Below, piece by piece: positions 25,874 through 27,359 of a DNA stretch of 64,000 bases (within the stretch, counting starts at the first letter, position 1; every line of letters starts with the position of its first letter). Below the pieces are notes generated by a model. It saw only the letters and a list, made by a program, of their open reading frames with translations, did no database searches and was not told the origin of the DNA. The translations under genes and the position numbers were made by a program. The stretch is from an uncultured archaeon (GTDB lineage: Archaea; Aenigmatarchaeota; Aenigmatarchaeia; CG10238-14; SCSR01): positions 334 through 64,333 of the forward strand of contig CAZRMN010000001.1 of NCBI GenBank assembly GCA_964601215.1. Reading direction: 5' to 3'.

Positions 25874-27359
25874 CCCTTTACTACGCCTAAAGGAACTAAT
25901 CTTACAACTCTTTTACTTATTCCTGCTTTTTCAGTAACTAAAGCAACTTCATCTATCTCTTTATAAACTTGTGGAGCTTCCTCTGCAACTACTTTCCAAC
26001 TGGCAGCTCTTACCAAAATTCCCCTACTAGCCAAATTTCTAGCAACAACTTCTCCCCTAAAAAGCTTCAAAGCTTTTGACCTAGACTTTAACCTTCCTGC
26101 TCCATGAGCAGTAGAATAAAATGTCTCTTTTGCTGTTTTTGCAGCAACTAAAACATAACTTGCTGAACCCATACTACCAGGAATTATCACCGGCTGGCCT
26201 ACGCTTTGATAATCTTTTGGTATATCTTTAAAACCTGCAGGGAAAGCCCTTGTAGCTCCTTTCCTGTGCACATAAACCTTTTTCTTTTCTCCGTTTATTT
26301 CATGTTCTTCTACTTTTCCAATGTTATGAGCAACATCATACATAACTTCTAAACCAATCTCTTCTTGTTTCATTCCTAATATTTTCATTATACTTTCTCT
26401 GACCCAATGAGTAATCATTTGCCTATTACACCAAGCAAAATTTGCTGCACAAGCCATCGCACCAAAATAATCTTCCAGTTCTTTAGTACCAGCAGGAGCA
26501 TAGACAAGTTCTCTATCTGGTAATTTTTTAATTAAATCTCTAAACCTTGATTCGAGCAAATGCAAATAATCAGTACAAACTTGATGGCCGAAGCCTCGAG
26601 AGCCAGTATGAATCATCACACAAACTTGTCCTTTTTTTTCAATCCCGAAAACTTTTGCTATTTCTGGAAGAAAAATCTTATCCACTTTTTGAATCTCAAG
26701 AAAATGATTTCCTGCCCCTAAACTTCCAAGCTGAGGAGCACCTCTTTGCAAAGCTTTTTTTGAAACTTTATCAGCATTAGCTTGCTTCATACAGCCATTT
26801 TCTTCCAAGTGTTCTAAATCTCTTTCTGTTCCATAACCTTGTTCAACTGCCCATCTTGCTCCAGCCTCTAAAACCTCGTTTTGTAGTTGAGAAGGAGAAA
26901 GTTTAATTTTACCTCCTCTTCCAACTCCAGAAGGAACATTCTTAAAAATCGAATCTAATAATTCTTTTAGCCTTGGCCTTACTTGTTCTTCTGTTAAGTT
27001 TGTAGTTAATAACCTAACACCACAATTGATATCAAAACCTATCCCACCTGGTGATAAACCACCTTCTTCACAATCTAAAGCTGCAACCCCCCCGATAGGA
27101 AAACCTTGGCCGCTTATAAGTATACTTATAAGCTATAGCCGAAATGCATATCGGGAAGGGCGATACTGTGTTTGTAAATCCCTGGTAAAAAAGCTACATT
27201 TGCTATTTGTTCTATAGCTCCTTCTTCTACTTGTTTCAAAAGTTTTTTTGATAAAAAAAGCCATGCTGGCACACGCATTCCTGACTTTGCTCCTTTCGGG
27301 AGTTCCCATATGCATGGTCCAATTTCTTTAAGTTTTTCTTTCAGTACTATTTCAATCAC
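25870..27359 (-). CDS. rtcB: RtcB RNA-splicing ligase, interrupted by a 29-nt BHB-type intron. Exons 27135..27359 and 25870..27105
   Basis: Exon 1 ends PDMHFGY; exon 2 (different frame) begins [30 protein letters not shown]. This collinear RtcB motif is interrupted by exactly 29 nt. Confidence 0.8.
27106..27134 (-). other. Candidate bulge-helix-bulge intron in the rtcB mRNA: AGCUUAUAAGUAUACUUAUAAGCGGCCAA
   Basis: 3-nt bulges AU|A and AA|G flank a 4-bp helix GGCU/GGCC, with a 9-bp inner palindromic hairpin. Cuts after the second bulge nucleotide reproduce the [10 protein letters not shown] junction. Confidence 0.6.

Follow-up and report, generated by a model that had tools for sequence, protein, structure and literature searches.

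Archaeal tRNA and rRNA introns reportedly adopt bulge-helix-bulge (BHB) folds of the hBHBh' type (Marck & Grosjean 2003), and a BHB intron is also said to interrupt the pre-mRNA of cbf5 in Crenarchaeota and Thaumarchaeota (Watanabe 2002; Yoshinari 2006). The XBP1/HAC1 mRNA undergoes unconventional cytoplasmic splicing, with cleavage by IRE1 and, in metazoa, ligation by RtcB. According to a cbf5 paper from 2009, other putative cases had been predicted earlier and were unconfirmed (PMC2738675). A study from 2020 named cbf5 as the only reported additional mRNA BHB intron and added a case from a 5' untranslated region (UTR) in Haloferax (PMC7714728), and a paper from 2025 cites cbf5 alone as an mRNA BHB intron (PMC12397907). 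Here, we analyzed the gene of the RNA ligase RtcB in a 64,000-nt stretch of contig CAZRMN010000001.1 from an uncultured archaeon (this whole stretch is called the window). The gene is interrupted by 29 nt, which a first-pass annotation made from the letters of the window had interpreted as a BHB intron of a kind not known in rtcB; likewise, we found no description of an rtcB intron in the published literature searched, and the interruption proved to be frequent in this lineage. In our reading the 29 nt are probably a BHB intron in the rtcB pre-mRNA of Aenigmarchaeota (DPANN), cut by the splicing endonuclease EndA and ligated by RtcB, to which we assign a probability of roughly 0.85.

The interrupted gene is composed as follows:

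27135..27359, minus strand: rtcB exon 1, with a GTG start at 27359 and 75 codons ending in ...PDMHFGY

27106..27134, minus strand: predicted BHB intron of 29 nt (AGCUUAUAAGUAUACUUAUAAGCGGCCAA), the deletion of which repairs the RtcB frame; inserts of 15-35 nt lie at the same site in metagenome contigs L081-L105

25870..27105, minus strand: rtcB exon 2, with 411 codons and a stop codon

At the junction the minus strand reads ...GAT ATG CAT TTC GGC TAT, AGC TTA TAA..., and the unspliced exon 1 encodes a 77-aa stub that stops after GYSL. Deletion of 27134..27106 joins exon 1 and exon 2 in a single open reading frame (ORF) of 486 codons, and the coordinates, sequence and product that had been given for this insert in the first-pass annotation were all correct. 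The fused ORF matched Pfam RtcB (PF01139) with an E value of 3.6e-171 over profile positions 1-426 of 426, and its product aligned end-to-end with the crystallised RtcB of P. horikoshii (1UC2/4DWQ; E 1.8e-183), gapless at the junction. The motifs for the metal and guanosine monophosphate (GMP) sites, DINCG, GNHF, HTGSRGFGH, DVAHN and STAHGAGR, are present in exon 2. The join is unique, because shifting the boundaries by 1 nt in either direction results in loss of the invariant GYGF or creates a stop codon. In the frame of exon 2, no ATG, GTG or TTG occurs for about 100 codons past the junction. NCBI/ENA records hold the exact 77-aa truncated ORF (GYSL followed by the stop) as P0121, which lies on a contig of 65,661 nt. 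The protein database contained no full-length protein that exceeded 83% identity to the spliced RtcB of the window, and therefore no assembled spliced transcript of the gene is on record. The nearest RtcB relatives stem from metagenome-assembled genomes of Aenigmarchaeota (DPANN).

The insert and its flanks fold into the following elements (arrows in sequences mark the predicted splice points):

27137..27140, minus strand: exon strand GGCU of the central helix H, with 4/4 pairs to the intron strand GGCC

27134..27136, minus strand: 5' bulge AU↓A, with the predicted 5' splice site between 27135 and 27134

27112..27133, minus strand: intron hairpin h' of 9 bp with the loop UAUA, found by RNAfold; 8/9 pairs vary on both sides in relatives

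27108..27111, minus strand: intron strand GGCC of the central helix H, supported by shared geometry and covariation

27105..27107, minus strand: 3' bulge AA↓G, with the predicted 3' splice site between 27106 and 27105

27149..27159, minus strand: exon 1 strand of the outer exon-exon helix (CCUUCCCGAUA), codons L-P-D-M, found by RNAfold

27087..27097, minus strand: exon 2 strand of the outer exon-exon helix (UAUCGGGGGGG), codons P-I-G-G-V, found by RNAfold and supported by covariation and synonymous conservation

The exon strand of H corresponds to the last 6 nt of exon 1 without the 2 bulge nt. Two 3-nt bulges are located on opposite strands with a 4-bp helix between them, as in a BHB, and each of the two bulges has its helix strand on the 5' side, as in tRNA introns at position 37/38. 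Cuts past the second nt of each bulge give the sole join that yields GY↓GF and a 486-aa RtcB. For the 86 nt from 27165 to 27080, RNAfold gave a structure of -34.1 kcal/mol (z = -3.6) and for the 52-nt core a z score of -4.2, with none of 200 shuffles as stable in either case. Both folds hold the GGCU/GGCC helix, the 3-nt 5' bulge and the perfect 9-bp hairpin. Beyond an internal loop, the 86-nt fold contains the outer helix between exon 1 and exon 2, which is 11-13 bp long in this fold and in which the exon 2 strand includes GGG GGG codons, unusual at the 32% G+C of the window. The hairpin, the GGCU/GGCC helix, both bulges and the splice points after their second nt had all been assigned correctly by hand, and folding by RNAfold recovered the hairpin, H and the 5' bulge, but left the strict 3' bulge outside the 86-nt minimum, in which this region has other pairs. 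The outer helix had been described as weak; this applies only to the part beside the 3' bulge, a single C-G pair in the window, whereas the exon-exon helix farther out had been missed.

None of the 80 GTDB representative genomes with RtcB relatives contained the intron at this position (site 1), as a single tblastn high-scoring segment pair spans the junction. This survey alone looked negative, and intron-bearing relatives were obtained from metagenome contigs with a gapped DNA pattern (ATGCAY NNN GGNTAY and GGNTTYCCNATHGGNGG, separated by 12-42 nt) in a single scan. An insert of 15-35 nt at exactly the site-1 codon boundary of rtcB was present in 25 metagenome contigs from 20 datasets. The insert lengths leave a remainder of 0, 1 or 2 upon division by three in 9, 7 and 9 contigs, respectively, and a stop codon is present in each of the nine in-frame inserts. 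Once the insert is removed, the ORFs of the relatives are intact up to the contig end, a second mini-intron or an intein, and their spliced RtcB is 65-87% identical to the protein of the window. The orthologs in related genomes, which had been suggested as a check, thus comprise 25 further rtcB genes with an insert at the same site and others that are intronless.

All 23 distinct sequences fit one geometry, in which the exon 1 nt at -6 to -3 are matched by the four corresponding intron nt. The 5' bulge is AU↓A in 21 of them (AU↓G and AC↓A occur once each), the 3' bulge is NN↓G, and between the bulges lies a complete hairpin with a closing G-C pair (A-U in L105). This hairpin counts 9 bp in the window; relatives have 2-9 bp. 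H is paired at 4/4 positions in 22/23 sequences (98.9% of H cells), and the rule that the splice site follows the second bulge nt is valid for all 25 relatives. For a covariation test, the 23 sequences were aligned with MAFFT (alignment A1) and compared with a 30-pair structure. In A1, 92.5% of the cells were paired, as opposed to 26-55% when partners were slid by 1-3 columns. Eleven of the 30 pairs vary on both sides, eight of these among the nine hairpin pairs, and for five measures none of 500 shuffles reached any of the observed values, statistics which overstate independence since the intron-bearing sequences are mutually related. Compensation within the central helix (C:G to U:A) was detected in L089 and L105, where GGC in the exon is changed to GGU and GGCC in the intron to GACC.

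Within a subfamily with introns of 16-17 nt (L083, L092, L094, L100 and L103), the intron sequence GCUGAAA(G) is complementary to the exon sequence UUUCGGC, and in L083 the exon reads CUUCGGC with a matching change. The resulting alternative hairpin would mask the 5' splice site; it is the minimum-energy structure in L103, the sole subfamily member that was folded. Whether by coincidence or not, it might compete with the BHB conformer.

A direct comparison of alleles is offered by L106, which is intronless, and L099, which bears the intron. L099 is the closest intron-bearing relative of L106, with identities of 96% for the protein and 87% for the DNA, and L106 is without exactly the predicted 18-nt intron. 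At the helix sites they show synonymous differences (CTC CCC to TTA CCT, TTC GGC to TTT GGA and ATC GGG GGG to ATA GGT GGA, from L099 to L106). Judged by this comparison, L106 amounts to a natural spliced version of an L099-type gene. The shared geometry of the 23 sequences, the pairing of 92.5% and this pair of alleles support the earlier proposal of an EndA-type BHB intron.

The exon flanks themselves differ between genes with and without the intron. When calculated without the central helix and bulges, the mean energy of the exon-exon duplex was -19.3 kcal/mol in intron-bearing genes, compared with -12.8 kcal/mol in 14 intronless genes of Aenigmarchaeota (Mann-Whitney p = 4.8e-5) and -13.7 kcal/mol in 72 intronless genes overall (p = 3.9e-9). 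Among synonymous codon pairs of intron-bearing genes, the third position was identical in a fraction of 0.65 across the 19 codons flanking the intron and of 0.47 farther out, while intronless genes had 0.40 in the structure zone and 0.44 in the control zone. The exon-exon helix therefore appears, from these comparisons, to be under selection. We take the long helix to be a clamp, which would hold the two mRNA halves between cleavage and ligation.

Two more BHB mini-intron sites were found in rtcB of relatives among L081-L103, 23-26 codons downstream of site 1 (e.g. L083 2232..2251). Site 2a lies inside the Phe codon of GIGF↓DINC and harbors 17-21 nt; site 2b lies inside the Ile codon of DI↓NC and harbors 22-23 nt (e.g. 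L092). At these two sites the BHB geometry is again that of site 1, with AU↓N and AN↓N as bulges, both follow its splice-site rule, and compensation was found in their central helices (UCGG/CCGA versus UUGG/CCAA; UGAU/GUCA versus UGAC/GUCA). Some rtcB genes combine site 1 with a second site, and some add inteins. A protein search with the 77-aa stub retrieved 68 clusters of short RtcB N-terminal ORFs from NCBI, JGI, ENA and Logan, one of them named Candidatus Aenigmatarchaeota. Fifty-three of these clusters end directly past PDMHFGY, mostly followed by the S from the intron AGC, and about 10 read past site 1 and stop at site 2a, which suggests that they are genes with site 2a only.

In a neighbour-joining tree of 159 RtcB, which is rough and built on biased sampling, 19 intron-bearing sequences were scattered and required 18 Fitch changes. 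By this comparison, close relatives are clearly polymorphic for the intron, and alleles with and without it are interleaved in Aenigmarchaeota. Such a patchy distribution would fit either an ancient intron that was lost precisely many times or its lateral spread among alleles, and it suggests that the intron is tolerated rather than required.

Large in-frame insertions of about 1.2-1.5 kb were also observed in rtcB of relatives: in L012 (1497..3001), after DINC in L081, L085 and L088, near residue 238 in L100 and near residue 407 in L087. The one at DINC is located at the catalytic Cys. These insertions presumably are inteins, and together with the mini-introns they mean that in this lineage one gene is interrupted at the RNA as well as the protein level.

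The window also provides a context of tRNA splicing, as both of its tRNA-Pro genes are interrupted. The organism would therefore be expected to have a splicing endonuclease and to need RtcB. The tRNA-Pro(GGG) gene (42587..42671, minus strand, 85 nt) contains an 11-nt intron, UUUGUACAGAA, at position 37/38; the anticodon is our own reading of the anticodon loop, and ARAGORN calls another. This intron is of the bulge-helix-loop type with an AA↓ 3' bulge as in the rtcB intron. The tRNA-Pro(UGG) gene (42317..42420, minus strand) has an apparent non-canonical intron of 29 nt in the acceptor stem. Its 5' strand GGGGACG is located at 42420..42414, apart from the rest of the gene, and removal of the 29 nt leaves a perfect 75-nt cloverleaf, the boundary sliding over a repeated ACG. 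ARAGORN and Rfam call only 42317..42391 for this gene, with three acceptor-stem mismatches. No simple BHB with a 4-bp H/H' was found for the tRNA-Pro(UGG) intron. The two unusual tRNA-Pro introns fit an endonuclease of broad specificity, and the first-pass annotation had presumed that the rtcB motif would need a relaxed enzyme of this sort.

Adjacent to rtcB and convergent with it lies the gene of its activator, the 3' ends of the two genes sharing 4 nt:

25457..25873, plus strand: archease gene (RtcB activator), Pfam Archease, E 7.4e-48

Directly upstream of rtcB on the same strand, dodecin and glutaredoxin genes are present (27418..27897, minus strand). Other interrupted protein genes of the window are those of a T2SSE/FlaI-type ATPase (14651..17764, minus strand, 1037 aa) with a LAGLIDADG domain, presumably an intein, and of MCM (56796..59912, minus strand, 1038 aa) with a LAGLIDADG and an intein-splicing domain, hence an intein. 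A loose scan of the window that combined BHB detection and ORF joining gave about 130 hits, nearly all at gene boundaries, and a complete hairpin only at rtcB. A stricter BHB scan over 752 kb resulted in 53 hits, compared with 35 in reversed-sequence controls; nine of the hits were rtcB and the rest were background-like. The 752 kb therefore gave no evidence of BHB introns in other genes.

Several other identities of the insert were considered and rejected. A repeat or miniature inverted-repeat transposable element was rejected since a repeat search found the hairpin sequence once in the window, and a terminator since no terminator-like site was found in 25300..27700. An intein is incompatible with a frame-shifting insert of 29 nt with a stop codon inside. 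A group I or II self-splicing intron was rejected because such introns have ribozyme cores of 200 nt or more, recognised by Rfam models, against 29 nt here, and because the Rfam matches above the gathering threshold were two tRNAs only.

It might be argued that rtcB is simply a pseudogene broken by a small palindromic insertion, with ligase activity supplied from elsewhere or by a host. The genomes of DPANN archaea are reduced and these organisms rely on hosts, automated gene calling gives only fragments of rtcB, and close relatives have intronless alleles, all of which would be in line with decay. However, over 25 independent contigs the exons are intact, with protein identities of 65-87% and conserved site motifs, the insert sits at a constant phase with a conserved, covarying structure, and synonymous sites in the flanks are conserved beyond those elsewhere, unlike in a decaying gene. 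Moreover, the archease partner is intact and the intron-bearing tRNA genes still require a ligase, and we consider a pseudogene very unlikely. Still less probable is that ribosomes skip the insert by programmed bypassing or frameshifting of the phage T4 gene 60 type. The resemblance to gene 60 lies in a hairpin at the start of the gap and a stop two codons past the take-off (UAU AGC UUA UAA). In bypassing, the landing codon should match the take-off codon UAU, but the resume point is preceded by CAA in the window and by UAG, CAU, UAA or UAC in relatives, and never by UAU/UAC in register with the take-off Tyr. Furthermore, the gap varies between 15 and 35 nt, while exon 1 keeps its pairing to the gap's 3' end and the two 3-nt bulges persist, features specific to a BHB, and the long exon-exon helix would be without a role in hopping.

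Since exon 1 ends with a stop codon and split protein genes do occur in DPANN archaea, the 75-aa and 411-aa parts could in principle be made separately and assemble as polypeptides of a Nanoarchaeum-like split gene. This is hardly credible, given that exon 2 would have to be translated from a frame devoid of ATG, GTG and TTG for about 100 codons, that the break would sit within the invariant GYGFPIGG motif and that the inserts are too short and too structured for an intergenic promoter or ribosome-binding site. The chance that the insert is an artefact of assembly or sequencing, which had been named as something to be checked, is close to nil. Nothing but its palindromic nature speaks for this, whereas the independent ENA assembly L112, reached via dodecin, shows 100% identity along a stretch of 1454 nt in which the intron is included, homologous inserts occur in 25 more contigs from 20 datasets, and the 53 clusters of truncated ORFs stem from NCBI, JGI, ENA and Logan. 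Independent contigs reached via archease stop short of the intron.

For the BHB intron we propose a mechanism in which the last 6 nt of exon 1 and the last 6 nt of the intron would form the GGCU/GGCC helix between two 3-nt bulges, with the intron hairpin inside the BHB and the exon 1-exon 2 helix of 11-15 bp outside. EndA would cut past the second nt of each bulge, the exon-exon helix would keep the mRNA halves together as the tRNA body does for tRNA halves, and RtcB, aided by the neighbouring archease, would join the 2',3'-cyclic-phosphate and 5'-OH ends. RtcB would be encoded only by the ligated mRNA, and the unspliced mRNA would give the 77-aa stub. Both enzymatic steps are inferred, as is any use of the loop in regulation. 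If EndA/RtcB splicing holds, RtcB synthesis needs pre-existing RtcB, and it follows that RtcB production would be an autocatalytic, cytoplasmically inherited loop.

Several observations weigh against this reading. Splicing is here predicted from DNA sequence and comparison. The strict 3-nt 3' bulge is missing from the 86-nt minimum-energy structure, the BHB conformer being 3.8 kcal/mol less stable, and in some relatives with 15-17 nt the minimum-energy structure is a different hairpin. Helix h beside the 3' bulge is a single base pair in both the window and L092 and has 2 bp in other relatives, where a strict hBHBh' asks for at least 2 bp in each flanking helix, and the relatedness of the intron-bearing sequences inflates the shuffle statistics. 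No endA was found among the 30 of 71 window ORFs that were scanned against Pfam, nor by tblastn with an approximate M. jannaschii EndA query in 752 kb, which cover 64 kb of this genome. Finally, the scattered presence and absence argues that the intron is dispensable, which weakens the case for an adaptive regulatory role. Of the feedback loop put forward in the first-pass annotation, the self-dependence follows from established biochemistry, but the patchy distribution fits a tolerated, often-lost intron as well as one with an adaptive regulatory role.

A further-reaching idea, which we consider doubtful and put forward only tentatively, is that an obligate autocatalytic rtcB loop operates in much of Aenigmarchaeota and that rtcB became a hotspot through reverse splicing by RtcB/EndA into proto-BHB folds of coding RNA. 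If true, ligase capacity would be inherited through the cytoplasm, and the loop might be bistable or act as a gauge that ties RtcB synthesis to free ligation capacity. The hotspot, three BHB sites within 27 codons, would then be a living model of protein-dependent intron gain and loss.

Whichever role the intron may have, annotation pipelines split or truncate rtcB (53 clusters, fragments of about 75 aa), and reconstructions of DPANN metabolism may misjudge the RNA ligase as missing or broken. The question whether a cell needs RtcB to make RtcB becomes directly testable in this self-referential circuit. In addition, introns of 15-35 nt, three sites and near-identical alleles with and without an intron represent a natural mutational series, which could define the minimal EndA substrate, the role of the clamp in ligation of mRNA halves and protein-dependent intron dynamics.

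Compared with archaeal tRNA and rRNA BHB introns, the rtcB intron has the same 4-bp helix, the same 3-nt bulges on opposite strands and the same predicted cuts at the second nt, and the tRNA introns of the window (11 and 29 nt) match it in size. It differs in that the host is an mRNA, in which an exon-exon helix built from codons would replace the tRNA body. The inteins of RtcB resemble the mini-intron as parasitic or tolerated insertions in a conserved motif that are removed after transcription, but they are in-frame, larger than 1 kb and spliced at the protein level, in contrast to 29 nt that shift the frame and bring a stop. By analogy, XBP1/HAC1 is the nearest functional counterpart. It likewise has a very short non-spliceosomal intron (26 nt in XBP1) whose removal switches the frame, exon-exon pairing (the RNA zipper) and, as proposed for rtcB, 2',3'-cyclic-phosphate and 5'-OH ends joined by RtcB. 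There, however, the nuclease is IRE1, the motif consists of twin stem-loops, splicing is stress-regulated and the spliced gene encodes a transcription factor.

HVO_1309 of Haloferax volcanii (Schwarz 2020, PMC7714728) is also a splicing-endonuclease substrate in an mRNA, as predicted for rtcB, but its intron is located in the 5' UTR, with an uninterrupted coding sequence, no frame logic and no link to a ligase gene. In mechanism, the rtcB intron and that of cbf5 (Yokobori 2009, PMC2738675) are elements of one kind. Both are short BHB introns in a coding sequence whose frame is restored only on removal, both have a host gene in RNA processing and a patchy distribution with secondary losses, and for both, cleavage by the tRNA-splicing endonuclease is inferred or shown. 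Splicing of cbf5 is experimentally confirmed, while that of rtcB is predicted from sequence. What is new is that the host gene encodes the ligase of the pathway itself, which would make its expression self-dependent, that up to three alternative sites lie within 27 codons with introns down to 15 nt, and that a long, apparently selected exon-exon helix, the putative clamp, is documented. Thus, rtcB would be the second protein-coding host gene of a BHB intron after cbf5, in a different superphylum, the DPANN lineage Aenigmarchaeota, and with dozens of natural variants.

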